Positions 12,839 to 49,596 of a stretch of DNA of 64,000 nt are shown one piece after another. How positions within the stretch are numbered: the stretch's first letter is position 1; every line of letters begins with the position of its first letter. This DNA comes from a virus. A program made the position numbers and the translations under genes. The stretch is from IMG/VR virus record IMGVR_UViG_3300033402_000312; one strand, given 5' to 3'. The notes below the pieces were generated by a model. It was given only the letters and a program-made list of their open reading frames with translations. It was not told the origin of the DNA and did no database searches.

Positions 12839-15800
12839 TTACTCACGAGTGCCACAAACAAAACGGTATTTCATGATGAGGCTGTCAGTATCAATAGTCT
12901 CTGGGCGAACAAAAACCTCATAGACGAACCCACCGTTTGGGTCATCGTTCCAAACGGCTGCTTGCGCCCAACTAGAATTCAGAGCGCTCTTAATGTCCCC
13001 GTCGTTGAGTTTTTTCATCAACCACGCAACACGACCGCCTTTGCCGGTGACTCCTAATGGTTGTGTCTGTTGACCCTGCTCAATAATGTCAAGCTGAATT
13101 TCCCCTACGCCTGGAACTTTATCAAGCAATGGACGTTGTGTAATTTTGAAACTTGCTACGAAAGTTGCGGCTATTTCCCCGCATACCTTTTTCAAAAACT
13201 CGGAGAATTGCTTAACTTCGTCTCCCGCAGCGACTTTCTGAGAGGCGATGGCCATCGCGGCTCCCGGTATTCCCTCATACTGACCATAAAATTCATCAGT
13301 AAACATATACCCTCTAATATCGTTCTCCTTGCGGAGAGGCGCTCCTTCGAGAACCTCGGGCTTGCCGTCGCGCCCGATGCCCATTCCGCCCGCTGGCTTA
13401 GTGGACGAGTAGTCCGCCGCAGCCATCGCGAGAGGCTCGACTTCGCCTACGTCGGCAGGCAACTGGATCATCTCGATCACGTTGGTGTCGAGTGCCTCGT
13501 CAAGCATGCCCTCAAGCTCGTGGCTGTCGTCTCCGACGATCTCCGGGTTGCCTGCGCCGCTCATCGGCTGGTTGGTTGCGTTCGGGTAATCCACGATCTC
13601 ATGCTGGATTTCCGGGTAGAATTCCTTCACCACCTGTCCGGGGAAGAAGAAATTGAAGCCCGCTTCCTTTTCGACCTGCTCTTCTGTTTTTGCCATACCG
13701 TCTCCTGCTGTCTTGCCCGCGTCAATTTGCGCCATCGCATCCAAGAACCGTTTCTCTCCGCGACCGCTCTTCAAGGCGGCAATCGCGTCCCGAGCGTTCT
13801 GACCAAACATTTTCAGATTCTCGCGACCTTGGTTTCCGCGCAAAGGATTTTCGCGGGGCAAGTTAACGCCCGCGCCGCCGATAGGCTTGCCCTTATAATA
13901 GAGCATGTAGCCATCGGCATTTGCTTGGTAGGTTAAATCTTCCGCCGCTTTTTTAACGCCCACATTCACGACTTTGGAGAAATCTTTCTTTGTGCCGCGC
14001 CTGTAGCTTTCCCAGCAATCGGATGTGTCTGGGGCGTCGCACTTGATCTTCTTGAAGAGCGTCCAACTGCCTTTTGGCTCCCGGGCCCCCTCGGAGTCTT
14101 GCGTATCCTCGGTCACAAGCTCTATTTTGATTTTCCGATTCGTCGGATGAAAGAAAAACATGTACAATGAACCGTCCACGTTTTCTTGCTTCCAGCCGTT
14201 CGCCCTCAGCAGTTTCTTCATCTGCGTGATGAGCTTGCTATGCCCCCAGCCCTTCTGAGCGGCTTTCTTCACGCCCGTGCCCCCTGCCGTGTAGGCTTTC
14301 TCGTCCCAGCGCAGGCCGTACTGCGCGAGTATCTGCTCGGACTCTTCCCTGTCCGGGCCGCCCATGACGTTGACCATCGGGTCGGGCATCTTCATCGTCT
14401 GGACGGCGATCTGAAGCTGGTGCCATTCCGGCGTGCCCTTCTGCGGCATGCGCTTCACAGAGGTGACATGGATGGCTGCGTTCTTCAGCGAGGAAGAGAT
14501 GCCGACGCTTTTCATGAAGGCGCTGTCTTGGATGTCGGTCTCCCTGCGTTCGTAGTCCATGTTCGCCTTGGCAAGCTCGACCCAGTTCGGCTCTTCCCAC
14601 GGCTCGTTTCCCTCGAACCCGGATTCGCGCTTAAGCTCTTCGTATTGCTTCCTGAAAGTCTTCTTCAGTTGCTCGGCAAGCTGCTCCGGCGTCAAGCCCT
14701 CCTTGATGGCGCGGCGCACCATGTCCTGCTTGAGTTCGAACGTCTCCCTGCTCTCGTTGTCGAGCCACATGTCAAGCTGCCCGGTCTCCCAGTTCGACCA
14801 GTGCTCCTCGCTAATGCCTTGCGGGTCGTCGGCGGTTTTGCCCGAGCTTGCTGATGTTTTCATCGAGATGCATTCGTTGCACAGCCCACGGCCTTCCTCT
14901 AGCTCCGTGCCGGGCAGAAGCTCCTCGCCGCACTTGTAGCAAAACCGCTCAGGATGCTCCGATTCCCCGGATTGCTGCTGCAATTCCTCAAACTTTTTGC
15001 CGCGAGTACCCGCCCCCGCTTGGTCGTAGAATACGTAGGTGTCGCTTTCCGGCGCGTAATCCATCTGCAAGCCCAAGGCTTCCGCAGTGTCCATCATGAA
15101 CGTCGTAAGCTGCTGCTCGAAGGAATCCATGTAGCCTTGCGGGTTCCTCTTCTTCAAGTCCGCGAAGATGCCGTTGAGCCTGTCCGTGACCGCCTTGATC
15201 ACGTCGGTCTTGTTCTTCTCGCTGACGCGGCTCTCGATGGACAGCGCCCTCTTGCCGAAGGAGGCCTTCTTGGAGGCGCTCACGATCCTCTCGGTCTCCC
15301 AGTCGTCGAAACGCATCGCAGGCTTGCCATCCACTTGCCCGCGCACAGCCCAAGTGAAGTCTTGCCCGTTGTGCTCCGGGTCAATCGTCGGGTACTTCTT
15401 TTGAGCCTCGGCGAGGTTCGGGAAGACCTCGCGCCCCTTGCTGCGGGTCACGACCTCGACGGGCGAGTTCACATAGCTCCTCCATTCGACCCACGCTGCT
15501 GTCTTTGTCCTTACGGCAGTTTTGAGGTGCCAGCGCATCTGCTTGTGCTTGAGCAAGCCTTCCCTGAGGAGGTCCTGGAGCACAGGATAAGCCATGTTGG
15601 TGTACTTGCCGCCGCCGAGCGCTTTTTCGATTTCGTCCGTCGTCTTCGGGCCGTGGCCCAGGATTTCCAGCACAAGGTTGCGCTTCGCAGGATCGGCTGC
15701 CGCTGTCTTCTTCACGGGCGGTTTTTCGGGCGGAATCGGCGTTTCGCTCACGGCAGTATGGGAGTTCCACCCGCACGAGCAGGCGTAGGAGTCCTCGGGC

Positions 15801-17614
15801 TTGCCCTTCGATGTCATTTTCCCGCACCACGGGCACCTCATAGTCCAGTTGCTCGCGAACTTGCTGAACTTAGCGGATGCGCTCTTGATGAAGGCATGCG
15901 CTTCCTTGAAGGAGGAGAACGAAGCCTCGCGCCGGGTGCCGCGAAAGACGAACCCAACGTGGAACGATGGGCCCTCTAAGTCCGTGCCGCCGAAAGCCCC
16001 GGTGCCCATGCCCGATGTGACTTTGCCTTGGTTTTCGCCGCCGATTGGCTCAGCGCCCTGCTTGACTTCGGAGGCATCCCCGATCTCGCGCCATATCCCG
16101 CCGCTTTGATCGACCCAAACGTTTTCTGCTTGGTTGTAGTCGAACTCTTCGCTGTTTTCGCTGGCAGCGGCAAGCTCTCCAATGTCGTGGACTTGGACGC
16201 GCTTGCCTTGGCGTTCAAGGACACGGAGGTTGGCGGTCTTTGTTGACTCAGCGCCCTTTTTCTCCTTCGCGATCTCGGCCTCGACGACGGCTTGGGCGTC
16301 GGAAGTGGTGAGACCTTCCTCTTCCAGTTTCCTGACCCTCTCCGCGTAGTCGGGACTCGGGTCGTTCGGGTACTGTTGACCGCCGGTCCCGATGCCCAGC
16401 TTGTCCCGAATATCGACGAATTTCTGCTGGGGATTGATGGGTTTAAGGCTCGTCAGGAGCTTCACCAATTGATGGTAGTTTTCGTTTTCCAATTGGTCGA
16501 TGACGGCTTGGGAGATGCGCTTGAAGCCAGCAGTCTTCATCGCCGCAAGCATCGCCGCCTGGTAGCGTGCCTCCAGTTGCGGGTCCTCCATGATCTGGCC
16601 GCCGCTTTCGATGCCGAGCCTGTCCCAGACATCGTTCTCCAGCAGCATGAGCCTCTCGGCTTGGGAGACCGCCGTCTTGGAGCCGACGTTGATGATGATC
16701 TGGGTGCCTGGCTTCGCGGAGACCTCGGTTGCGCCAGCCGGGGCCTCGCCGTTGAGCTTGGCTTCCGTCTGCTCCACGGCACGCTCGACTTGCTCCTGCT
16801 TGACCTCGATGGGCTTGTGGACTTCCATTTCCGCCTGCGTCTCGATTGCCTCGCGGATCGCGTTCACGTTCTGGCGCTCCGGGGACTTGATTCCGCCGTC
16901 GGCCACAGGGACGCCGTTTTCCTCGTGCGTGTTCGCATGAAGCTCGTCGTTGGAGGCCCCCGCTTCCGGCCCGTCGATGTGGGCTTCGCCGTACGCGTTC
17001 TCTATCGGCTCCATCATCTTCGAAAGCTCTTGGTCGCTGTGGATCAGTTCGGCCGCCAGCTTGTAGGCTTCCGGGCTGTAGCCGTCGTCGGCGAACTTGA
17101 TCGTCACGCCTGTTTTCGTCGAGGCCGCCTTAAGCTTCGCCTCGTATGGCTGCTCTTTCGCGGGCAGCCCCAACGCTTCCAGGTGCTTGCACTTGCGGTG
17201 GCCGATCCAGCCGGGGCAGTTGCAGCCCCAATAGCGCCACTTCTTGTTCTGCGCGATGGTGTAAAGCCTGCCGGAAGACTCGGACTTGATGTAGAAGCGG
17301 TTCGTCCATTGCTTGTTGTCAGGCAGCAGTTGCCCCTCAAATCGTTGTCCGTTGATAACTATGGCTTGCGGGTTGTACTCGGGGTCGTCCGCAGGCTGCG
17401 GGGCTTTGCCCTCGGGTCGCGGCGCTTTCTTCTCGGATTGCTGGGACGGGACGGCGATGTTGAGGGGCTTCATGCCTGCCTCTTCGCGCATCTCGTTGAG
17501 GGCGTCGATCTCTTCCTGCTCGACCGGGTGCCCTTCGGTGAGCTTCCAAAGCAGCGTCTTCGTGAAGACGTTGACTGCGTTGGTTATGTCCGCGATTTTA
17601 TTCTGCTGGTTCAT
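12839..17614 (-). CDS. giant virion-module protein (1591 aa) with N-terminal SWIM-type zinc finger
   Basis: ATG preceded by AAGGGAG. SWIM CxCxnCxH: WGCNCPGWIGHRKCKHLEAL. Additional zinc ribbon CPWCGKMTSKGKPEDSYACSCG and a KYCYKCGEE...CNEC pair. Acidic overall. Confidence 0.7.
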   Translation of the reverse strand: MNQQNKIADITNAVNVFTKTLLWKLTEGHPVEQEEIDALNEMREEAGMKPLNIAVPSQQSEKKAPRPEGKAPQPADDPEYNPQAIVINGQRFEGQLLPDNKQWTNRFYIKSESSGRLYTIAQNKKWRYWGCNCPGWIGHRKCKHLEALGLPAKEQPYEAKLKAASTKTGVTIKFADDGYSPEAYKLAAELIHSDQELSKMMEPIENAYGEAHIDGPEAGASNDELHANTHEENGVPVADGGIKSPERQNVNAIREAIETQAEMEVHKPIEVKQEQVERAVEQTEAKLNGEAPAGATEVSAKPGTQIIINVGSKTAVSQAERLMLLENDVWDRLGIESGGQIMEDPQLEARYQAAMLAAMKTAGFKRISQAVIDQLENENYHQLVKLLTSLKPINPQQKFVDIRDKLGIGTGGQQYPNDPSPDYAERVRKLEEEGLTTSDAQAVVEAEIAKEKKGAESTKTANLRVLERQGKRVQVHDIGELAAASENSEEFDYNQAENVWVDQSGGIWREIGDASEVKQGAEPIGGENQGKVTSGMGTGAFGGTDLEGPSFHVGFVFRGTRREASFSSFKEAHAFIKSASAKFSKFASNWTMRCPWCGKMTSKGKPEDSYACSCGWNSHTAVSETPIPPEKPPVKKTAAADPAKRNLVLEILGHGPKTTDEIEKALGGGKYTNMAYPVLQDLLREGLLKHKQMRWHLKTAVRTKTAAWVEWRSYVNSPVEVVTRSKGREVFPNLAEAQKKYPTIDPEHNGQDFTWAVRGQVDGKPAMRFDDWETERIVSASKKASFGKRALSIESRVSEKNKTDVIKAVTDRLNGIFADLKKRNPQGYMDSFEQQLTTFMMDTAEALGLQMDYAPESDTYVFYDQAGAGTRGKKFEELQQQSGESEHPERFCYKCGEELLPGTELEEGRGLCNECISMKTSASSGKTADDPQGISEEHWSNWETGQLDMWLDNESRETFELKQDMVRRAIKEGLTPEQLAEQLKKTFRKQYEELKRESGFEGNEPWEEPNWVELAKANMDYERRETDIQDSAFMKSVGISSSLKNAAIHVTSVKRMPQKGTPEWHQLQIAVQTMKMPDPMVNVMGGPDREESEQILAQYGLRWDEKAYTAGGTGVKKAAQKGWGHSKLITQMKKLLRANGWKQENVDGSLYMFFFHPTNRKIKIELVTEDTQDSEGAREPKGSWTLFKKIKCDAPDTSDCWESYRRGTKKDFSKVVNVGVKKAAEDLTYQANADGYMLYYKGKPIGGAGVNLPRENPLRGNQGRENLKMFGQNARDAIAALKSGRGEKRFLDAMAQIDAGKTAGDGMAKTEEQVEKEAGFNFFFPGQVVKEFYPEIQHEIVDYPNATNQPMSGAGNPEIVGDDSHELEGMLDEALDTNVIEMIQLPADVGEVEPLAMAAADYSSTKPAGGMGIGRDGKPEVLEGAPLRKENDIRGYMFTDEFYGQYEGIPGAAMAIASQKVAAGDEVKQFSEFLKKVCGEIAATFVASFKITQRPLLDKVPGVGEIQLDIIEQGQQTQPLGVTGKGGRVAWLMKKLNDGDIKSALNSSWAQAAVWNDDPNGGFVYEVFVRPETIDTDSLIMKYRFVCGTRE

Positions 17615-26502: not shown

Positions 26503-27306
26503 TTAAGCGGCTGCTGCCGCACTCCTTTTGTTATTGACCGCGTTGGCACAAGCACGCTTGCAATACTTTCTCGTCTTCACAGAACTAAAATCCTTCCTAC
26601 GCGGGATGATAAAGGAGCCACACGCAGCACAGAAGTTCGGATGAGCTAGATACTCATTCCATTCACGATTTTGCCGCTCTTTTGTAGACTCCTTACGCAA
26701 AGAATTCACAAAACTACGTACACTTTGGATGCCTTTGGAGTACCCGTTTGCCCGCAAACGTTTACAAATCGTAACTGCATCCATCTGTGGCGTCCGTCGA
26801 AGCCACAAGATAATCATTTCCCGAAAAGCATCGCACGCTTTGGCAGGAGGATGCTCTTTACGATACTGACTTAGCTTTTTCCGTCCCTCGGCATTTTCAG
26901 CCCATTTCTGTCCCAAATGCATTTTTCCACCAACCGCGCCCCCTTTTCGACAACCTTCTAACAGTCGCCCAGTCTTAGGACGTCCATACATCCAATTCAA
27001 CTTGCCCGGTGCTGCCCCGTCGCCCCCCAGCGTCATGTTGTAGCCGTTCGCCGGAACGTGGCTTTGGTGCAGGACGATGAAGAAGGTCTCCATTGCCGAA
27101 AGCTCTTCCGGGGTCTTGGCTCGGCGGATTACCTCGACGGTGAAGGCGTCGGCTCCGTACTTGCGGATAGCATTTGACAAATACAACGTGCTTCCGTTTT
27201 TTGCAGCGCGAATATGCTGTTTCCATCGGTCTCGGGCAGACCGTCCCTGCCATTTCCCAATGTAAATTTTGCCGTTCTTCCGGTTTGTAATTTTGTATAT
27301 CAGCAT
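26503..27306 (-). CDS. GIY-YIG homing endonuclease (I-TevI-like, 267 aa)
   Basis: MLIYKITNRKNGKIYIGKWQ (GIY...YIG), R...H, FIVLHQ, and NGYNMTLGGDG (the I-TevI NGYN motif). Basic C-terminal DNA-binding tail with a CxxC. Confidence 0.8.
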   Translation of the reverse strand: MLIYKITNRKNGKIYIGKWQGRSARDRWKQHIRAAKNGSTLYLSNAIRKYGADAFTVEVIRRAKTPEELSAMETFFIVLHQSHVPANGYNMTLGGDGAAPGKLNWMYGRPKTGRLLEGCRKGGAVGGKMHLGQKWAENAEGRKKLSQYRKEHPPAKACDAFREMIILWLRRTPQMDAVTICKRLRANGYSKGIQSVRSFVNSLRKESTKERQNREWNEYLAHPNFCAACGSFIIPRRKDFSSVKTRKYCKRACANAVNNKRSAAAAA

Positions 27307-40582: not shown

Positions 40583-41176
40583 TTAGGTGACCACCAGTTG
40601 AGTCATCGTCTGGAACACGACGACCTCCTCGCTAACGATGTTCGATATGCCTGAAACAAAGGGGGATTCGCCCGCAGTGTATACCGCGAACAGTGGATGG
40701 ATTCCCGCCGCCAGCGACGAGTCCGTGTACGAGGCGGTGCCCGACACGAGGGTCTGCGGGCTTCCTATCGGGATAGCCCCGTCATAAAACTGGATGGTGC
40801 CTGTCGGAGTGCCCGCACTCGATGTCACTGTCGCCGTGAGAACAACCGGGGCTGTCAGGTATGTTGGGTTCGGGCTTGCCGCCAGCGAATAGGCCATGCC
40901 GCTGCCGCTCACGAACGGCGGCGACGGGACATGGTGGATGACTTGGATCACGCCCTGCAAATTGATCACGTTCGCCATGAAAAGCAAGTAACGATTGTTC
41001 GCCGGATCGAACGAGAAGGTCTGCACCGCCTGAAGCACGCCGTCAACGTACACGCTCAGGTCGCGGCGGGGATCAAACGAATCGAGCAAGCCGCCCTGCA
41101 CGAACGGCCCCGCAAACGGCGCGAGCGCGATCTGTATGCGGTTTGAGTAAGGCTCATTGGTCTGCGCGTGCATCAA
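40583..41176 (-). CDS. Ig-like structural protein (197 aa)
   Basis: TGTIQFYDGAIPIGSPQTLVSGTASY Big-type segment, paralogous to the segment in 39570..40565. Confidence 0.5.
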   Translation of the reverse strand: MMHAQTNEPYSNRIQIALAPFAGPFVQGGLLDSFDPRRDLSVYVDGVLQAVQTFSFDPANNRYLLFMANVINLQGVIQVIHHVPSPPFVSGSGMAYSLAASPNPTYLTAPVVLTATVTSSAGTPTGTIQFYDGAIPIGSPQTLVSGTASYTDSSLAAGIHPLFAVYTAGESPFVSGISNIVSEEVVVFQTMTQLVVT

Positions 41177-42228
41177 TCTTCCTCTTCGCCTTTGACGAAT
41201 TTCTTGATCTTTTTCCAGACATCGCGGCGCTTGTCAGGGTCTTTGACGCGCATCCAAAGGTTGTGCAGAATGTCGAACGCGGATTCGCCCTTTTCCTCTT
41301 CCTGGTACGGAAGGCCTTTGTGGATGTGCGGCTCGCCTTTTTCGTGGGCTTCCTCGATCCTTTTTTCTTCATCGTCAGTCAACTCCCCGATGTCAGCAGC
41401 CTCCTGTTCCTCGACCGTCTTCGCCGGGGCTTTGGCTGGGGTCGGTGGGGTTGGTGCTTCCTCATGCGGCTGCGTCGCTGGCTCGGTGCGCTCGACCGCG
41501 CCTCCCTCAGGCACCTGTTCCTCAAGCTCCCTCTCATGGAGCATCCTCGCCTCTTCTTCCTTGCGCAGCGCGTCCAGCAGCTTTTCCTTGATCTCCACGT
41601 CCTTCGTCTTGCGGACCTTGTCGATTTTCTTCCTCTTCTCCTCCCGTTCCTTCTGCTTCTGGAGAAGCTCGGGGCTGCTCTCAACCTCCAGCTTGCGCTG
41701 CTCCATCTCTCGTTTCCGAAGGATGTTCACGATGTTGTGCTGCACGCTCGGCAGGATGCGCTCGAACACCGCGTGGATGTGCTTGCAAATGACGTAGTTC
41801 CCCCGCAGGTCAAGGCGCTCCTTCGGGGCTTGCAGCAGCGGGCGGGAAGGCCCAAGCAGGCCGTCGCGCTGGTGAAGGTTCCACTGGGCACCCCAGTAGA
41901 GGAACGCCGGGCACGAGCACTGGACTTGGATGTCAAGGTCTTTCGCCTTCTGTGACTCCTGCACCTTCGTCACGTCGAACTGCGTCCTGACGTCGTGACC
42001 GGCAGGATCGCTGTCATCCTTGTTGCACTTGACATTGTAATGAAGGAACAACGCCTTCGGGTTCGAATCCAGCAGGCGGGGCTGGCAGCCGCCGCGATAC
42101 TTCTTCGAGAAAGCATTAGTCTGGCGGACAAGGTCGGGGAGGGAGATCGCAGTCTTGACGGCACGCTCGCCGACGCCTTCGATGACATCCACGGCAGCGG
42201 AAAGCGGGATTGTAATAAACTCAGCCAT
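41173..42228 (-). CDS. SWIM zinc-finger protein with Lys/Glu-rich coiled-coil C-terminal half (351 aa)
   Basis: QVQCSCPAFLYWGAQWNLHQ...YVICKHIHAVF equals CxCxnCxH. The C-terminus is a KEEE repeat-rich helix with an acidic tail. Confidence 0.6.
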   Translation of the reverse strand: MAEFITIPLSAAVDVIEGVGERAVKTAISLPDLVRQTNAFSKKYRGGCQPRLLDSNPKALFLHYNVKCNKDDSDPAGHDVRTQFDVTKVQESQKAKDLDIQVQCSCPAFLYWGAQWNLHQRDGLLGPSRPLLQAPKERLDLRGNYVICKHIHAVFERILPSVQHNIVNILRKREMEQRKLEVESSPELLQKQKEREEKRKKIDKVRKTKDVEIKEKLLDALRKEEEARMLHERELEEQVPEGGAVERTEPATQPHEEAPTPPTPAKAPAKTVEEQEAADIGELTDDEEKRIEEAHEKGEPHIHKGLPYQEEEKGESAFDILHNLWMRVKDPDKRRDVWKKIKKFVKGEEED

Positions 42229-42288
42229 TTGGACGCACTCAACCCTTCACTTAGGGTTCAAAAAGCACGCATTTAATAGCTGAAAGGG

Positions 42289-42447
42289 CTACTGTTTTTG
42301 CGCAGTGTTTTTGGCACGGAAACAGACCTTCAGCGGAATGCCCTTCGCAAGCTTGCGCTGGCATTCCTTACAGATAATCCAATCGATGGCGTAGCCCAGC
42401 CACTCGTATGCCTTGCAGTAGAAGACGCAGAGACGCTTTTTACCCAT
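42289..42447 (-). CDS. unlisted 52-aa Cys-rich small ORF (coordinates +/-2)
   Basis: MGKKRLCVFYCKAYEWLGYAIDWIICKECQRKLAKGIPLKVCFRAKNTAQKQ. Its ATG overlaps the TGA of 42447..42872 (TGATG). It fills an otherwise unexplained 218-nt gap. Confidence 0.3.
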   Translation of the reverse strand: MGKKRLCVFYCKAYEWLGYAIDWIICKECQRKLAKGIPLKVCFRAKNTAQKQ

Positions 42448-42872
42448 CAAATTGTCTCGTCCTCGATCTCTTCAAGCTTAACTTTGCCGGAAGGCTTCGG
42501 CTTCGGTACAGATTCTGGCAGCTTTTCGCGCTTGAGCGGCTTTGGTTCTTCTCTCGAAGGCGCGGAGACAGGCGGCTTAGGCGTCGGCTTAGGCTCTTCC
42601 CTCTTGGGGACTGGCTTGGAAGCCTCCGCAGGCTTCGGGGGCGCTTTGGGAACCGCTTTGGCAGCCTGGATCACTTCTTCGATGAACCCGCTTTTTTGCA
42701 TGGCGGCAAGCCCCAAGAACGTCTGTTTCACGGCTTTGACAACCTCCCCGTTGCGGTACACCGTCAGGCGGTTGGCGTTGGAGGTATCGTGAACCAGTAT
42801 GTCCCCGACCTTCACGAAGAAGCCGAAATCGGCGAAATGCACCGGGGACTTGACTAGGTAACTACGCTGCAC
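42447..42872 (-). CDS. hypothetical protein with Pro/Lys-rich C-terminal half (141 aa)
   Basis: ATG-initiated. PKPAEASKPVPKREEPKPTPKPP low-complexity tail. Confidence 0.45.
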   Translation of the reverse strand: MQRSYLVKSPVHFADFGFFVKVGDILVHDTSNANRLTVYRNGEVVKAVKQTFLGLAAMQKSGFIEEVIQAAKAVPKAPPKPAEASKPVPKREEPKPTPKPPVSAPSREEPKPLKREKLPESVPKPKPSGKVKLEEIEDETI

Positions 42873-42890: not shown

Positions 42891-43874
42891 TTAGATACCG
42901 AGATTGTCTGTATTGCTGGCTTTCCGGGCTTTGTGAGACGCCCTCATCCTTTGCCTAGTGGACTCTGGGCGTGTCTTTCCCGCCCAATATCCGGGCTTTC
43001 CGAAGCGGTTATTGCCAGCCCCCTGCCTCTGTTCGGATAGCCGCTTGCGTGCTTCATCCGACCATTTCCAGTGCTTTCCCTCGGCTGCCACGCGGACTTT
43101 CGCGGCGTGTTCCTTCGAAAGTTTGCGTCCATCCAATGTTTCGCTGATCTTGTCAGCGACTTCCTTGGGGCAGCCGCCTGCACGATGGTGCCGATCTCTG
43201 TGCGGGAGGTAGGAATAGGCGTTTGGTTTTCCCTTCTCTAGTTGATGATGCGCTTTGCTTCTTTCGCCTACTTTCATCTTAAATTCGCTTGAATGATAAG
43301 TGGGCCTCCCCAAGCAAAATCCTCGCTCCAAAGACGATTGAACCTCCTCGACTGGGACACGGTAAGACTCTTCTCCCTTGTGTACCCATTGGCGCGGCGG
43401 AGCGACCTGTGTCCATCCATCTATGAGCTTGGTGTCGAGTTCTTCGGCGGACACCACGGTGTGCAGCTTGCCTTTGTAAATATGCATCCAGCCTTCGACT
43501 GACACAGCGCCGGAGCGGATGCGCTCGTATTCTAGTGACATGTCCCGCACCAACGCCTCGTCGTAATTGCTCTGCACCAAAATGTTGAGGCGCTCCACGG
43601 ATGCCATCTTGAGGAAGGACAAGTAAGCAACCGGATGCTTCGGCAAAGCGCGGTAGAGGTAGTAGTGCGCTACGAAATGGTCGGACGGTGTGAGACGCTT
43701 CAGATTCCATGAGTGGTCTCTGAACGACTCGAACTCGGGGAACATGGCGCGTGGCAGAATGTGGTGGCGATGGCTGCGACCTGCCGGGGATTTGGCGGAC
43801 GTGACAAAATCCAGATAAGCGCCAATCCAATTCTGGTCAGCGCCCAGCCGACCGAAGTACGTTTTGAAATCCAT
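42891..43874 (-). CDS. HNH homing endonuclease with NUMOD-like C-terminal DNA-binding repeats (327 aa)
   Basis: SHRHHILPRAMFPEF...NLKRLTPSDHFVAHYYLY (HH...N...H HNH_3 pattern). C-terminal LSKEHAAKVRVAAEGKHW and GKPGYWAGKTRPESTRQRMRASH NUMOD-like repeats. Confidence 0.75.
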   Translation of the reverse strand: MDFKTYFGRLGADQNWIGAYLDFVTSAKSPAGRSHRHHILPRAMFPEFESFRDHSWNLKRLTPSDHFVAHYYLYRALPKHPVAYLSFLKMASVERLNILVQSNYDEALVRDMSLEYERIRSGAVSVEGWMHIYKGKLHTVVSAEELDTKLIDGWTQVAPPRQWVHKGEESYRVPVEEVQSSLERGFCLGRPTYHSSEFKMKVGERSKAHHQLEKGKPNAYSYLPHRDRHHRAGGCPKEVADKISETLDGRKLSKEHAAKVRVAAEGKHWKWSDEARKRLSEQRQGAGNNRFGKPGYWAGKTRPESTRQRMRASHKARKASNTDNLGI

Positions 43875-43967: not shown

Positions 43968-44927
43968 TTAGTTCTCACCCGTGTTCGCCGAGCTAACGAA
44001 ACGTCCGTTAACCGTCAAACGCTGGACTCCCGAAGGATTGAAAACCAAAAATCCCAAATTCTCGAAGATCGAGAAGCCGATCTGGCGGAGGTCCGGACGG
44101 TCGGCAGACATCACCGTGAGCGGAATACGCTCGGGGATGACGCCGAGGAACTCTGCGTCCGCAAGGATGTAAATGGAGCCGTAGCCGACCTTACGGGACT
44201 GGAGCAGCGTTGCGCCCCAGAGGTAGCCCATGACGCCGGTCTTGAGCAGCTTGCGCTGGGTTTCGCGGTCGATGTTCTGCTGAGTCCACTTGAGCAGGTC
44301 GGTGTAGTCGCGCGGGTTGAAGAACACGAACGCAACCGAGAGGTCGTGACGCTGCACCTGACCGAAGCCATCAGCCATGCTGTTGATGTCGATAGGGGCG
44401 TTGATCGCGATGTCCGGGTTGTACACCGGGTCGTTTGCCGCGTGCGTTGCCGCTGCGGAAGCGACTGCGTCGAAGAGCGAGAAGACGTAGGCGTCTTCCT
44501 GCGCTCCGACTTCTGCCTTCGCCAAGTTCAGGGAACGGGCGACGAGGTCGAAGCGGCGCTCCTTGATCTGGGTGATGGGGATCATCGGGTTGGAGACGAT
44601 TTCGAACGTCGGCACGGTGACGCGCTTCGGCTTGGTGACGCGGACGATGTCGCCGCCCTCTTCACCAACCACGAAAGCTTCGACGAAGGACGAGCCGGGT
44701 GTGGAGCCGACTGTCATCGCCGCCGTGTCGAATTCCTTGTCGTAGATCGGCAGTGCGCCGTCAGGCAGTGTCTCGACCATGAGCGCCTTGCGTGCGATGC
44801 TCATGTAGTCGCGACGGCGGCGAAGGGAAGGACCCAACGACGCTGCGAGCTTCTGGCGTCCGCCTGCTGTCTTGAGCAGTTGCCCAAGCATTGCGGTCTG
44901 TTGCTGCGTGCGTGAAAGATTTGCCAT
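43968..44927 (-). CDS. putative major capsid protein (319 aa from the internal ATG)
   Basis: ATG at 44927 preceded by TTAGGAGAAAAA. Sits after the scaffold-like gene and is followed by the strongest terminator in the window. Size and composition are compatible with an HK97-fold coat protein. No motif-level proof. Confidence 0.5.
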   Translation of the reverse strand: MANLSRTQQQTAMLGQLLKTAGGRQKLAASLGPSLRRRRDYMSIARKALMVETLPDGALPIYDKEFDTAAMTVGSTPGSSFVEAFVVGEEGGDIVRVTKPKRVTVPTFEIVSNPMIPITQIKERRFDLVARSLNLAKAEVGAQEDAYVFSLFDAVASAAATHAANDPVYNPDIAINAPIDINSMADGFGQVQRHDLSVAFVFFNPRDYTDLLKWTQQNIDRETQRKLLKTGVMGYLWGATLLQSRKVGYGSIYILADAEFLGVIPERIPLTVMSADRPDLRQIGFSIFENLGFLVFNPSGVQRLTVNGRFVSSANTGEN

Positions 44928-45733: not shown

Positions 45734-46312
45734 ATGACCAAGGGAACAAGAAGAATCTATTACCAATTCTCGACGTCCAGAGGGGTAGGCTCTTGGTTCA
45801 TCCGCTGGTTCACTTGGTCAGAGTTCAGCCACGTGGACTTGGTGGAGCCGGACGGCTGGCTTCTGGGTGCCCGCCTCTTCGCTAACCATGCGCCAAGCGG
45901 GAAAGGCGGTGTGCAACGGAGACCGCCCGAGTACGTCAAGTTCACTAAGACCCTTCGTGTCTGCATCGAGGTGACGCAGACCCAATACGAAACATTCTGG
46001 GCGGAGGCGCACAGGCAGATAGGCAAGAAGTACGACTGGCTGGCTGTCTTTGGGTTTCTGTTCAAGAAGGACTGGCAGAACCAAGATCGGTGGTTTTGCT
46101 CAGAGTTTGGTCTTTGGGTGGCTGTGCAGGCTGGGGTGCGAATGCTGAACCTTAGCCGCATAGACAGGTGCTCCCCAGAGCTACTTCTCTGCTCGCCTGA
46201 GTTTCACAGAGAAGACGAAGACGAGTACTACAAATACTACTCTGAGTGGACGATTGGAAAACGAGATTGGCCACGAAGCCCGATGCCCGCTTCTCGAACC
46301 TTCGTTAAATGA
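45734..46312 (+). CDS. permuted papain-fold (NlpC/P60 superfamily, YiiX/YaeF-like) amidase/peptidase (192 aa)
   Basis: ATG preceded by GAGGAG. Has SHVDLV (His) ahead of DRWFCSEFGLWV (Cys in a CSEL/F-type context), the His-before-Cys order of permuted NlpC/P60 enzymes. Confidence 0.5.
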   Translation: MTKGTRRIYYQFSTSRGVGSWFIRWFTWSEFSHVDLVEPDGWLLGARLFANHAPSGKGGVQRRPPEYVKFTKTLRVCIEVTQTQYETFWAEAHRQIGKKYDWLAVFGFLFKKDWQNQDRWFCSEFGLWVAVQAGVRMLNLSRIDRCSPELLLCSPEFHREDEDEYYKYYSEWTIGKRDWPRSPMPASRTFVK

Positions 46313-46345
46313 AAAAAGGGCAGGAGCTATTTGCCCCTGCCCTTG
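46311..46345. terminator. bidirectional intrinsic terminator (approximate)
   Basis: AAAAAAGGGCAGG-agctatttgcc-CCTGCCCTT. On the minus strand the hairpin is followed by TTTTTTCATTT. On the plus strand it follows the stop of 45734..46312. Confidence 0.7.
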
Positions 46346-46367: not shown

Positions 46368-48593
46368 TTAAAATTCGTCGTCGCCAAGCAGTGCGCCAGC
46401 GATGTCGAATGGCTTCTGCTCCGAAGCGGTGATATTCTTGAGCTTCTTGATGACCGGGACCTTCTCGGCAACCTTCTCCTTGGCGGGAGCGGCTGCGTTG
46501 GCTGCCTTCGCGGACGATGACTTCGGCGCTTGCAGAACGTTGGTCTCGTCCTGCTTGACGCGCTTGAAGCCTCCGTCCTCGGGCTTCTGGTCTTCGATGG
46601 CTTCCGCGAACAGGTCGCCTTCGTGGTCGTTCTCGTTGTCGCGGCTCTCGCCGGTCGCGGAGTCAGACTCGAAATGCTTCGCGGCTTCGCCTGTGAACGA
46701 CGGGACGACTTCCATCCCGGCGACTTCGGCTGCGGTGCGAACCTCGCCTGCGATCAGTGCGCGGAGAGGGTCGGAGTCGGAGCCTTGCAGGGAGAAGAAG
46801 TCCTCCATCGATGCGATCTGCGTGTCGTCGAGGCTGGCTTCCATGCTCTCTGCGGCGGACGGAGCGAAGTACTCTTCGCCATTGCCCGCGACGTGCTCTT
46901 CGCCTTCGTTGGCAAGGGCGGAGACCTTTTCTTCTATCTCGTCCTCGTTGAAGACCTTCGCAAGGTCAAGCTCCTCTTCTCCCTCTTGCAGGATTTCCTG
47001 CTCAAGGGCTTTGATGGCTTCCTGCGCCTCCTCGATTTTCTCCTCAACGACCATCTTCTTCTCGTCGCTTAGAACTTCGCCAGCAGTGTCAGCTTCCGCG
47101 CCTTCGTCCACCGGCAAGTCTGCCGGGGCTTCCTCAATCGGGGCCTCTTCAACCGGGGCTTCTCCGAGAGCTTCCGGGGCTTCCTCAATCGGGGCCTCTT
47201 CAACTGGAGGTACATCCCCTGCGGGAGCGTCTATCGTCTCGTCAGCCTTCTTGGCTGCGGCTTCCTTCGCGCCGCACTTACACGGTCCCTCGCACTTGCA
47301 TTCTGCTTCAGCCTTCTTGGGCGCTGCGGCTGCCTTGGAAGCTGCCTTGCCGTCGCCTTCGGACTTGTTGACTGTGTTCTCGGGACGGTTGGCAGCCTCG
47401 GTCTGCGATGCAGACGTGCCTGCATCCATGGGCTTCGGCTCGGTATGCTTGCCGCCGCCTGCGCCGCGCCCATCGTTGTAAGTCTCGGTCTGCGGTCCCG
47501 CGTCCTTGCGGTCGTCAGCCTTCTTCTCAACGGCGGCGTTCTTGGGATCGCCCTTGACTTCGGCTGCGACTTCTTTTTTGAGGGACGAGAGGACTGAGGG
47601 GTCTTCTAAGGCATCGTTAAGCTCGACCTTATGGACTTGCTTGAAGGTCTCGGCAAGCTTGGAATAGTGCGCGTTTTTTGCCGTCTGACGAAGCATCGCG
47701 TTCAGGACTTTCGTGCTGTTTGAGAGCAAGCTGGATGCGGCGTCCTTCTGCGCCTCTGCCGGAGCGGTCGGGAGCATCGTCTTAGCGATAGTCCACGCGG
47801 CCGCGACGCGCTGCTGCGCCTCGCGCCTGATAGCCTCGCGCTTGGTCTTCACTTCTGCCAGCTTCTCTTGCACCGAAGCTTTGGCTGGGGTCGAATTTGC
47901 CATGTTGGAGCCTTCCTTTTTCGTGTCAGAACGGGCAGAAACGCCCTTCTTAACAGGGGATGCGTAGCTGTTTTTCTTGCCGATTGCGTCCTTGCTTTGT
48001 CTAACTCCGCAGTAAATGCACTGGTTGTTCGGGTCGTTGCCTGGGTTTTGCCCGCAAACCCAGCACTTCTTGGCAGCAGTCACCGAGGCTGTCGGAGGTT
48101 CCAGCGGGGCTGGTTCTGCTGCTGGTTCTGCGGCGGGGATTTCAGGTGCCGGAGCGGGTTCGGCAGGAAGTGCTTCAGGAGCGGGGGGTATTGCTGCCTC
48201 AGGAACAGGGGCTGCTTCCGGCAGAGGTGCCGGGGCTGCCAAGCCGGGGGCGGGTGCTATGCCGCCAAGCTCGTCTGCCGCTGCCACTTCCCCGCCAGCG
48301 ATGTCGCTGATCTCGATGTCGATCTCGCCGAGCAAGCCCTTTATCTGCTCAGACCACGGGCCGTCCTTGAACTTCTCCCACTGGGAGATAAGCTCGACCC
48401 CCTCGCGCATCTGCCGAATCTCTTCCTCAAGCTCCTCGCGCTTCTCGGACAAAAGGTCAAATTCAGGAGAGACTGCCATGTTGGCTGGAGCCTCGGGTGC
48501 CATCTCAGGCATGCCCATGATTTGGTCGTCCATTACGTCCAGATCAGCTTGCTTCTTCGCCAATGCAGCTTGCAATTTCTTTAAGTTTGCCAT
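46368..48593 (-). CDS. acidic low-complexity scaffolding-like protein (741 aa)
   Basis: ATG preceded by TAGGGAG. Coiled-coil N-terminus, APIEEAPEALGEAPVEEAPIEEAP repeats, CWVCG...CIYCG and CKCEGPCKCG cysteine clusters, pI strongly acidic. Sits in the slot upstream of the capsid gene. Confidence 0.55.
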   Translation of the reverse strand: MANLKKLQAALAKKQADLDVMDDQIMGMPEMAPEAPANMAVSPEFDLLSEKREELEEEIRQMREGVELISQWEKFKDGPWSEQIKGLLGEIDIEISDIAGGEVAAADELGGIAPAPGLAAPAPLPEAAPVPEAAIPPAPEALPAEPAPAPEIPAAEPAAEPAPLEPPTASVTAAKKCWVCGQNPGNDPNNQCIYCGVRQSKDAIGKKNSYASPVKKGVSARSDTKKEGSNMANSTPAKASVQEKLAEVKTKREAIRREAQQRVAAAWTIAKTMLPTAPAEAQKDAASSLLSNSTKVLNAMLRQTAKNAHYSKLAETFKQVHKVELNDALEDPSVLSSLKKEVAAEVKGDPKNAAVEKKADDRKDAGPQTETYNDGRGAGGGKHTEPKPMDAGTSASQTEAANRPENTVNKSEGDGKAASKAAAAPKKAEAECKCEGPCKCGAKEAAAKKADETIDAPAGDVPPVEEAPIEEAPEALGEAPVEEAPIEEAPADLPVDEGAEADTAGEVLSDEKKMVVEEKIEEAQEAIKALEQEILQEGEEELDLAKVFNEDEIEEKVSALANEGEEHVAGNGEEYFAPSAAESMEASLDDTQIASMEDFFSLQGSDSDPLRALIAGEVRTAAEVAGMEVVPSFTGEAAKHFESDSATGESRDNENDHEGDLFAEAIEDQKPEDGGFKRVKQDETNVLQAPKSSSAKAANAAAPAKEKVAEKVPVIKKLKNITASEQKPFDIAGALLGDDEF

Positions 48594-48672: not shown

Positions 48673-49596
48673 TCAACGCCTCAAGTCCCCGCGAAAATCC
48701 GACTCAAGCAAAAACTCCCCGGTATCTTGGGCAAGGGTTTTTGAAGCAATCATGGCAAATTTAGAAGCTGCCGACTGCTTCTTGGTGTACGGGGTCGAGG
48801 GGCCGACCCATTCCTCGGCGACGATGCTTCTTTTCGCGGCTCCGGGGAACGCCGGGGTTGCAACCCAGCTTGCCTCGACGAATTTCACGCCGCCGTTGAC
48901 CATGGTCTTGTGCCCGCAAAGCTCGGCGATGCGGCGCGGGATGCCGTCGTCGTCGGCCAAGAACGTGCCCTTCTGGAAAGAGAGGTGGTTGCAGTACGTG
49001 TTGGCGTCAGTGACGCGGGTCCCGCAGTAGGAGCAGATGACAAGGTCGGTCACGCACCCCATGGACAGGTAGCGGACGTTGCCCTCGCGGATGTCGTTTA
49101 CCAGCTTCTCATGGGTGATGTCGGTCGCCACCAGGATGTCGCAGTAGTAGACCCAGATTTCGGGGGTAATGTTGATCTTGCGCAGGACTTGATCCAAGAT
49201 ATGCCCTTTTGCGTATTTACTGTTCTGAAAATGCTCGACGAAGTTGAAGGCTCCGACAAACGAAGGCGCTGACAGCTTCAAGACTTCGTTAGTCCATGCG
49301 TCATCGTTGTTGTTGACCAGGTGGCTTGTCTCGGGCTTGATCAGGTAATCGAACGGCTCTTCCTCCGTCATCACGCTGCTCATGATCGTTACGTGCGACA
49401 GCAAGTACTTTGAAGAAGAACCAGCGGCCATTTTTCGGCGTGCTGCCGCTGCGCTTCTGCTTGCAACTTTGCAGAACGGATGATCGCTGTCGATGTCGCA
49501 GCCGCGAAACGCACGCTTCCCGAACATCTTTTCCCAGTCGCCGGGATTCAGGATGGGTTCGTTCAACTGCGCGTTTGCTATCTTGTTAAACGGCAT
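48673..49596 (-). CDS. head-module protein (307 aa); prohead protease candidate by position only
   Basis: Lies between the 1883-aa gene and the scaffold-like gene. Contains conserved-looking His/Cys/Ser residues but no motif I can assign. Confidence 0.4.
   Translation of the reverse strand: MPFNKIANAQLNEPILNPGDWEKMFGKRAFRGCDIDSDHPFCKVASRSAAAARRKMAAGSSSKYLLSHVTIMSSVMTEEEPFDYLIKPETSHLVNNNDDAWTNEVLKLSAPSFVGAFNFVEHFQNSKYAKGHILDQVLRKINITPEIWVYYCDILVATDITHEKLVNDIREGNVRYLSMGCVTDLVICSYCGTRVTDANTYCNHLSFQKGTFLADDDGIPRRIAELCGHKTMVNGGVKFVEASWVATPAFPGAAKRSIVAEEWVGPSTPYTKKQSAASKFAMIASKTLAQDTGEFLLESDFRGDLRR

Follow-up and report, generated by a model that had tools for sequence, protein, structure and literature searches.

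We analysed a gene on a 64,000-nucleotide (nt) stretch of viral DNA, IMG/VR record IMGVR_UViG_3300033402_000312 (the window), whose source is a huge Acidobacteriota phage resembling Tunturi_5. The gene is a minus-strand open reading frame (ORF) at 41173-42228, for which re-translation confirmed the strand, the ATG start and the length of 351 amino acids (aa). Its product carries a CxC...CxH signature resembling the SWIM zinc finger, and we refer to it as the SWIM gene. In a lineage of large and huge phages that includes the cultured phage Tunturi_5, this gene belongs to the core of the capsid-assembly block. This conserved place is the strongest context signal for the protein and is missing from an earlier note on the same DNA. 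The working part of the protein is its basic N-terminal domain of ~150 aa. The features of the gene, with predictions by AlphaFold2 (AF2), its confidence score (predicted local distance difference test, pLDDT) and isoelectric points (pI), are as follows.

41173..42228, minus strand: ORF of the SWIM-type protein of the head-gene module; ATG start, 351 aa, TGA stop; homologue of Tunturi_5 gp336
41704..42156, minus strand: conserved basic core, residues 25-175, pI 9.4, the part common to the whole family; AF2 predicts a helix, four beta-strands, the CxC, a helix, a long loop and the CKH helix
41911..41919, minus strand: C104-S-C106, first half of the putative zinc signature; relatives have an intein between S105 and C106
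41788..41910, minus strand: 41-residue spacer between the ligand pairs, PAFLYWGAQWNLHQRDGLLGPSRPLLQAPKERLDLRGNYVI, nearly invariant within the sub-lineage
41779..41787, minus strand: C148-K-H150, second half of the putative zinc signature; relatives have a homologous intein directly before C148
41509..41703, minus strand: K/E/R-rich helix, residues 176-240, with 19 K+R and 19 D+E (composition and AF2)
41413..41508, minus strand: variable P/A/E/T-rich linker, residues 241-272, predicted to be disordered with pLDDT <50 (alignment and AF2)
41293..41412, minus strand: acidic helix and C-terminal motif EExKIEExH...KPH(I/L)HKGLPYE, residues 273-312, pI 4.3, conserved in the sub-lineage
41176..41292, minus strand: variable basic amphipathic tail, residues 313-351, pI 9.2, ending GEEED, missing from most homologues
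42229..42288, minus strand: 60-nt leader of the SWIM gene, inside a 96-nt fold at 42215-42310

The ligand pattern points to a SWIM-type finger with a long insert

Classical SWIM domains occur in SNF2 ATPases, MuDR transposases and MEKK1, and Makarova, Aravind and Koonin are said to have predicted originally, in 2002, that the domain binds DNA or proteins. The earlier note had seen such a finger in the 351-aa protein and had named the SWIM profile threshold beforehand as the check on which the claim should fall. Taken literally, and for this protein alone, it does fall there: the Pfam SWIM model (PF04434) scored it at 11.5 bits (E=0.22), below the gathering score of 19.6, and no single stretch passed, because a long conserved insert splits the short SWIM model.

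The motif is nevertheless present, invariant and connected to recognised SWIM domains through its family. Across 282 aligned homologues, C104, C106 and C148 were each conserved in 281, and K149 and H150 in 280, so that CxC...CxH is not a chance pattern; no column besides these five is invariant in distant relatives, and G113 and P135 are near-invariant across the family. PF04434 was matched at E<=0.01 by 29 of the 90 distant relatives, the best being P0217 at 27.4 bits, and P0277, which is 65% identical to the target core, carries a precomputed match to the same model. The 90 relatives had been gathered with the family profile at E values of 1e-10 to 1e-26. We read the 351-aa protein as a divergent SWIM-type finger with a conserved insert of ~30 aa, a putative member by transitive homology, in which C104, C106, C148 and H150 are the predicted zinc ligands and would bind zinc.

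The protein shares with PF04434 the CxC...CxH in its typical "CxCP.F/W" and "CKH..A" contexts. The AF2 model, at low confidence in part of this region, has strands running into the CxC and the CxH at a helix start, as would fit a SWIM finger. It departs from PF04434 in its 41-residue spacer, which is highly conserved and YWGAQ(W/Y)N...P..R(D/N)P-like, in a core that adds a conserved N-terminal helix and sheet with co-varying Cys48 and Cys68, and in belonging to a family that is phage-specific and tied to the capsid gene cluster. The second cysteine pair, C48 and C68 (42085-42087 and 42025-42027, minus strand), was present in full in 242 of the 282 homologues, absent in 29 and half present in 11 (raw counts, uncorrected for kinship). 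H78, near this pair, is mostly conserved, and C48/C68 might form a disulfide or serve as an additional metal site.

The full-length AF2 model reached a mean pLDDT of 69.6, and a model of the core alone was worse, at 50. The full-length model places a strand at residues 99-104, a helix at 107-120 and a further helix from residue 149 onward. Confidence was low over residues 116-144, within the spacer between the ligand pairs, with pLDDT <50 at 116-129 and 138-144. Sequence searches of PDB with the full-length and core profiles gave no match, and Foldseek of the predicted structure against BFVD and PDB gave none at E<=0.001 and recovered no SWIM structure. A scan of the target against NCBIfam returned noise only, and the target matched no PHROG family at E<=1. 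The proteins make up a phage family of their own, uncharacterised and built on a fold type already known.

The gene keeps its place beside the capsid gene

The head-gene block of the window, on the minus strand, contains the following genes in the order of transcription.

48673-49596, minus strand: prohead protease (phrog_18299)
46368-48593, minus strand: p741, a 741-aa A/E/K/P-rich, low-complexity, scaffold-like protein, its gene preceded by that of the protease and followed by the decoration-like and capsid genes
within the minus-strand head block: p190, a 190-aa decoration-like protein in the position of the phage G decoration protein gp26
43968..44927, minus strand: major capsid protein, HK97-fold, 319 aa from the gene-caller ATG, syntenic with the SWIM gene
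42891-43874, minus strand: HNH/NUMOD3 homing endonuclease, between the capsid gene and p141, in some relatives only
42447..42872, minus strand: p141, a conserved 65-aa N-terminal domain with a P/K-rich tail, between the capsid and SWIM genes in all related loci
between p141 and the SWIM gene, minus strand: p52, a 52-aa Cys-rich ORF found in the closest relatives only
40583..41173, minus strand: Big196, a conserved N-terminal domain of ~100 aa with a Big_3_5 immunoglobulin (Ig)-like domain, directly after the SWIM gene

The order protease, p741, p190, capsid, p141, SWIM and the Ig-like Big197 is invariant in >40 related loci, and in the window two Big_3_5 Ig-like proteins follow the SWIM gene (Pfam). 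We compared the median identities of the encoded proteins over 44 non-redundant loci. The SWIM core (72%) was the second most conserved element of the block, behind the capsid protein (89%) and ahead of the protease (66%) and the decoration-like protein (57.5%). Big197 (48%), the scaffold-like protein (47%), the SWIM tail (42%) and p141 (39%) followed.

The association reaches well beyond the closest relatives. In L100, a contig of 81 kb, identity to the window proteins has dropped to 34% for the capsid protein and 29% for the SWIM core, and a single gene separates the two genes. The P0287 contigs (227 kb) carry the capsid gene, a homing endonuclease, a few small genes and then the SWIM gene, and in L089 and L091 the distance between capsid and SWIM genes is 4-9 kb. 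In the 30 kb surrounding the capsid gene of phage G, which has the capsid type of the Tunturi_5 lineage, we found no SWIM homologue, and phage G gp28 is unrelated.

Tunturi_5, the only cultured phage of the lineage, is a myovirus of Acidobacteriota; its genome measures 309 kb and has 58.4% GC (PMC11924767). Its gp336 (XOB77779.1) is an orthologue of the target, with 65.6% identity over the core, and is likewise encoded behind the capsid gene and a p141-like gene. It differs in having its own C-terminal tail, which lacks the KPHLHKGLPY motif, and in being followed by a 1381-aa fibre-like protein where the window has the 196-aa Ig-like protein.

Stop and start codons overlap as TGATG both between the SWIM gene and Big196 (41171-41175, minus strand) and between p141 and p52 (42445-42449, minus strand). 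Because of these overlaps the genes appear to form two translationally coupled pairs, which would be split by a structured spacer of 60 nt. The 96-nt region 42215-42310 (minus strand), which includes the SWIM start codon, folds as a stable hairpin of -29.6 kcal/mol (z = -3.06 versus shuffles). A strong hairpin resembling an intrinsic terminator (43943-43910, minus strand; 15-bp stem, 8 G-C pairs, T run) follows the capsid stop and precedes the HNH gene, and another (46316-46344, minus strand) follows the scaffold-like gene. A terminator right after the capsid gene fits lower expression of the genes downstream.

The earlier note had drawn attention to other neighbours, the HNH/NUMOD endonuclease and the small Cys-rich ORF. 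The HNH gene is indeed nearby; it is not adjacent, lying two genes upstream with p141 and p52 between. Neither neighbour proved meaningful, since the HNH gene is mobile and occurs in some relatives only, p52 occurs in the closest relatives only, and a functional link of the SWIM gene to either was rejected on this sporadic distribution. Both tell more of homing elements clustering at conserved genes than of function. In the relatives L027, L043 and L081, small HNH ORFs lie in the gap between p141 and the SWIM gene, and the window has a GIY-YIG-type gene at 26503-27306 (minus strand).

Inteins in relatives target two predicted zinc ligands

Some homologues are overlong, and we considered whether their N- and C-terminal extensions were fusions to neighbouring genes. 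No matches supported this; several of these proteins are instead intein-bearing alleles with Hint and LAGLIDADG domains (~380-470 aa). Such inteins occur in at least 11 clusters and in L084 (8717-10003), an IMG/VR locus; the SWIM gene of the window has none. They occupy two sites. One lies between S105 and C106, with the junction ...VSCS/CVAPGT...VVHN/CPAFLYWG (P0122, P0144, P0168, P0170, P0155 and P0305), and the other directly before C148, with the junction ...NFVI/CVAPGT...VVHN/CKH (P0148, P0139 and P0133).

From the junction sequences, C106 and C148 would each act as the intein +1 residue. Inteins from one site share 40-50% identity with those from the other, which suggests that an intein may have passed from one site to the other inside a single 150-aa domain. 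Typically, inteins are found in essential genes, at positions that are conserved and critical. Seen against that general pattern, their presence at C106 and C148 marks the putative zinc-ligand cysteines as the functional heart of what would be an indispensable protein.

The family is large and found mostly in uncultured phages

Searches with the target gave 276 matches at E<=0.01, and a profile of the N-terminal domain gathered 366 clusters (50% identity). In IMG/VR the family has 119 loci, with contigs reaching 455-463 kb. A set of 185,579 bacterial and archaeal species, each represented by one genome, yielded no relative. Against 50,697 deposited phage records, tblastn with the core returned Tunturiibacter phage Tunturi_5 as its only significant match (E=1e-64). 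Queries with five distant relatives added one uncultured 485-kb phage, and the family consensus added BcepSauron/BcepSaruman and Maribacter phages. A second profile search of a 5.8-billion-protein set brought no further named proteins, and literature searches on SWIM domains in phage virions or huge phages and on the PHROG identifiers retrieved nothing relevant.

The identical protein, P0001, was read on seven metagenome contigs. Its cluster also lists it on a contig of 894,233 bp; the longest contig that we retrieved was 146,733 bp. To our knowledge 894,233 bp exceeds any phage genome, and the contig may be explained by concatenation, by mis-assembly or by a genome of very large size.

Many family members consist of the ~150-aa core alone, and others add K/E-rich, P/K-rich or acidic tails. 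The core is basic family-wide, with a median pI of 9.6 and a net charge of +12. P0183 (696 aa) has two tandem SWIM cores, at residues ~201-325 and ~470-596, and P0261 joins a T4-like portal (PF07230, 30.3 bits) to a SWIM core at its C terminus. In several clades other than that of the window, a small Zn_ribbon_8 (FmdB-like) gene lies within one gene after the SWIM gene and often overlaps it. A DUF5659 gene often lies a few genes beyond. The window clade has its Ig-like gene in place of the Zn_ribbon_8 gene. The Zn_ribbon_8 genes after SWIM are as follows.

L086, 9439-9828: Zn_ribbon_8 gene
L088, 2557-2943: Zn_ribbon_8 gene
L089, 6339-6758: Zn_ribbon_8 gene
L100, 10498-10758: Zn_ribbon_8 gene

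The charged helix and C-terminal segments are lineage-specific

The earlier note had described the protein by a KE-rich coiled coil and an acidic tail. As a defining feature the KE-rich tail does not hold: it is poorly conserved, at the median identity of 42% given above, and is a lineage-specific accessory, because many members are core-only and others have different tails. A long K/E/R-rich helix is supported by composition and by AF2, which draws one continuous helix from the CKH at residue 149 to about residue 238. The coiled coil is not. Over residues 166-240 no heptad register had more than 33% hydrophobic a/d positions against 27% hydrophobic overall, and a segment of 75 residues contained 18 opposite-charge i/i+4 pairs; both are crude, composition-based tests. 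For lack of a heptad register, an ER/K-type single alpha-helix (SAH) is the more likely structure for residues 176-240, as modelled. Like SAH spacers, the segment has balanced K/R and E, low hydrophobicity (27%) and a continuous AF2 helix; it differs from them in being broken by "SSPE" and poorly conserved.

The acidic tail was correct for residues 273-312 only. The last 39 residues are basic and end in GEEED. In the target the acidic helix ends in KPHIHKGLPY, and within the C-terminal motif H295, H301, H303, G305, L306, P307 and Y308 are at least 90% conserved. From this conservation, residues 273-312 are a possible docking motif.

A second SWIM-like motif and other features of the window

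The earlier note had also reported a second, unrelated SWIM finger in a giant protein of the same DNA, which we located as follows.

12839-17614, minus strand: 1591-aa giant ORF (from the ORF list)
17183-17224, minus strand: compact, canonical-looking SWIM motif CNCPGWIGHRKCKH (YTIAQNKKWRYWGCNCPGWIGHRKCKHLEAL with the preceding residues), aa 131-144 of the giant, found by pattern with a spacer of n=9

That the two proteins are unrelated was borne out: BLASTP finds no similarity between them, and on this ground we rejected their homology. The motif CNCPGWIGHRKCKH does look canonical; a Pfam scan of the whole giant gave no SWIM match at E<=0.1. Beta-strand-like YIKS and YTIA segments precede it, and residues 95-162 of the giant are 57% identical to the uncultured 595-kb phage LR756511.1. 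At its other end, ~280 aa (aa 1307-1590; 12839-13763, minus strand) are 44% identical to Tunturi_5 gp350, annotated "DarB-like antirestriction protein." The zinc-ribbon-rich giants of the window may be packaged or injected proteins.

Within the head block, p741 carries two small Cys clusters, CWVCG...CIYCG and CKCEGPCKCG, and is likely the scaffolding protein of the phage. A lone plus-strand gene lies among the minus-strand head genes (45734-46312, plus strand; 192 aa). Its product matches phrog_1128 at E=2e-25 and, weakly, YiiX/YaeF permuted papain-like enzymes, and tblastn found no match to the gene in the related IMG/VR loci or in Tunturi_5.

A proposed head-assembly or packaging role and its alternatives

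We propose that the SWIM protein is a low-copy head-assembly or DNA-packaging accessory or adaptor, and we put the probability of this reading at roughly 45%. Its zinc-stabilised basic core would bind DNA or the portal/capsid vertex. In the sub-lineage of the window, the charged single helix and flexible linker would hold the C-terminal motif at a distance, where it could contact a partner, maybe the Ig-like protein encoded by the overlapping downstream gene. The proposal draws on the observed conservation, the invariant ligand positions, the capsid synteny, the intein sites, one portal fusion and the gene overlap, and from these we infer zinc binding, the partners of the protein and any presence in proheads or virions.

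The lambda head genes offer an analogy of position. They run C-Nu3-D-E-FI-FII, with gpFI, an accessory of DNA packaging, encoded immediately behind the capsid gene E. In the window, protease, scaffold, decoration, capsid and small accessory genes follow in matching order, with one conserved gene (p141) between capsid and SWIM genes. The sub-lineage protein may resemble gpFI in its build, with a long linker, flexible or charged, connecting two modules; it differs in its putative zinc finger, which gpFI is not known to have, and the core-only family members are without the linker architecture. By this analogy, a gpFI-like packaging chaperone would be one concrete version of the proposed role. 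Two other head functions were considered. A main scaffolding role was rejected, as it does not suit a gene downstream of the capsid gene, and p741, upstream, fits it better. A minor head protein like SPP1 gp7 or Mu gpF is not supported: a Pfam scan of the target showed no Phage_Mu_F domain, P0261 was the sole portal fusion seen in the wider family, and in the target lineage the gene follows the capsid gene, not the portal gene.

A bolder form of this proposal is that the long-insert SWIM core is an essential, previously unrecognised component of capsid assembly or genome packaging across the lineage with the phage-G/Tunturi_5-type capsid, possibly a zinc-dependent DNA- or portal-binding factor at the portal vertex. 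It would jointly explain the conservation rank, the capsid adjacency down to ~30% identity, the two intein sites and the portal fusion. We hold it only tentatively and think it somewhat unlikely.

Several points weigh against a role in head assembly or packaging. Where the protein acts, and how, is read from gene context. The paper on Tunturi_5 (PMC11924767), in which the term "mass spectrometry" does not occur, offers no virion proteome, and structural data turned up for no family member. The portal fusion P0261 rests on a single 5.3-kb contig, and two wider-family members from cultured phages have non-structural neighbours: BcepSauron gp239 (family hidden Markov model [HMM], 32 bits) has a one-base overlap between its end and the start of a gene for an RNA polymerase sigma factor, and gp126 of Maribacter phage Molly (family HMM, 49 bits) is surrounded by replication genes, with primase and ligase among them. 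Because many members lack the tail, the idea of a spacer and a docking motif can apply to the sub-lineage alone. Finally, the coupling to the Ig-like gene and the Phold label "tail protein" on gp336 point to an external fibre role.

That role is the first of two alternatives that we consider unlikely, each to a similar degree. Here the protein would be an external virion part, the anchor or stalk of a head, neck or tail fibre. Its core would sit on the particle and its charged helix would point outward, carrying or positioning the co-translated Ig-like protein, or in Tunturi_5 the 1381-aa "tail fiber protein." Besides the TGATG overlap with the Big_3_5 Ig-like gene, it would account for the build of the downstream protein, whose N-terminal ~100 aa are conserved and whose distal parts are highly variable, like those of fibre or decoration proteins, and for the variable SWIM tail, as expected of an exposed part. 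The label on gp336 also speaks for it, as does phrog_1722 ("tail protein"), which by HMM matches 7 of the 90 distant relatives; phrog_4315 (unknown function) matches 17 of the 90, in both cases over the SWIM core. The label, however, comes solely from Phold/Foldseek transfer to phrog_1722 and is unverified, and the target itself matches neither family. Many relatives, being core-only, have no stalk, and other clades have the small Zn_ribbon_8 protein downstream and no fibre. A Cys-based zinc site and a basic core would also be unusual for an exposed surface protein, and P0261 puts the core at the portal C terminus, which in T4 gp20 faces the capsid interior.

The second is that the SWIM protein is a non-structural nucleic-acid binder, a late-gene regulator or nucleoid/DNA adaptor, that happens to be parked in the structural block; this comes near the DNA/chromatin adaptor suggested in the earlier note. 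A core that is basic family-wide, the original prediction of DNA or protein binding for SWIM domains, the BcepSauron and Molly contexts, the P/K-rich, histone-H1-like tails of several relatives and the FmdB-like Zn_ribbon_8 gene that follows in other clades are all consistent with it. Yet the adjacency to the capsid gene is kept down to ~30% identity, on contigs from ~80 kb to >450 kb, which is difficult to reconcile with an unrelated regulator. The gene also sits past the capsid terminator among late genes, the portal fusion P0261 exists, and Pfam and NCBIfam scans of the target found no helix-turn-helix or other transcription-factor domain.

Least probable by a wide margin is that CxC...CxH is a chance match in a protein that is neither zinc-binding nor SWIM: this would fit the sub-threshold Pfam score, a 41-residue spacer far longer than that of the compact motif of the 1591-aa giant and the lack of a PDB or fold match to a SWIM structure, but the five motif residues are the sole invariant columns across the 366 clusters, PF04434 recognises about a third of the distant relatives (29 of 90), at least one of them above the gathering score, and the inteins target exactly C106 and C148.

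Implications for huge phages

Most of the gene content of huge phages is dark matter. Neither Pfam nor PHROG nor NCBIfam has a model dedicated to this family, and none of its members is characterised; yet in a lineage widespread in soil and peat its gene ranks among the most conserved ones adjoining the capsid gene. The inteins at two putative zinc-ligand cysteines offer a natural example of an intein that appears to have moved between sites in a small domain. The function of the protein is directly testable, because a cultured member exists in Tunturi_5 on Tunturiibacter. Should the protein turn out to be an ordinary fibre anchor or regulator, the result would be a useful annotation correction and no more. 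If the head-assembly or packaging role is true, a zinc-finger protein encoded in the core of the head block would be an unusual addition to tailed-phage morphogenesis.

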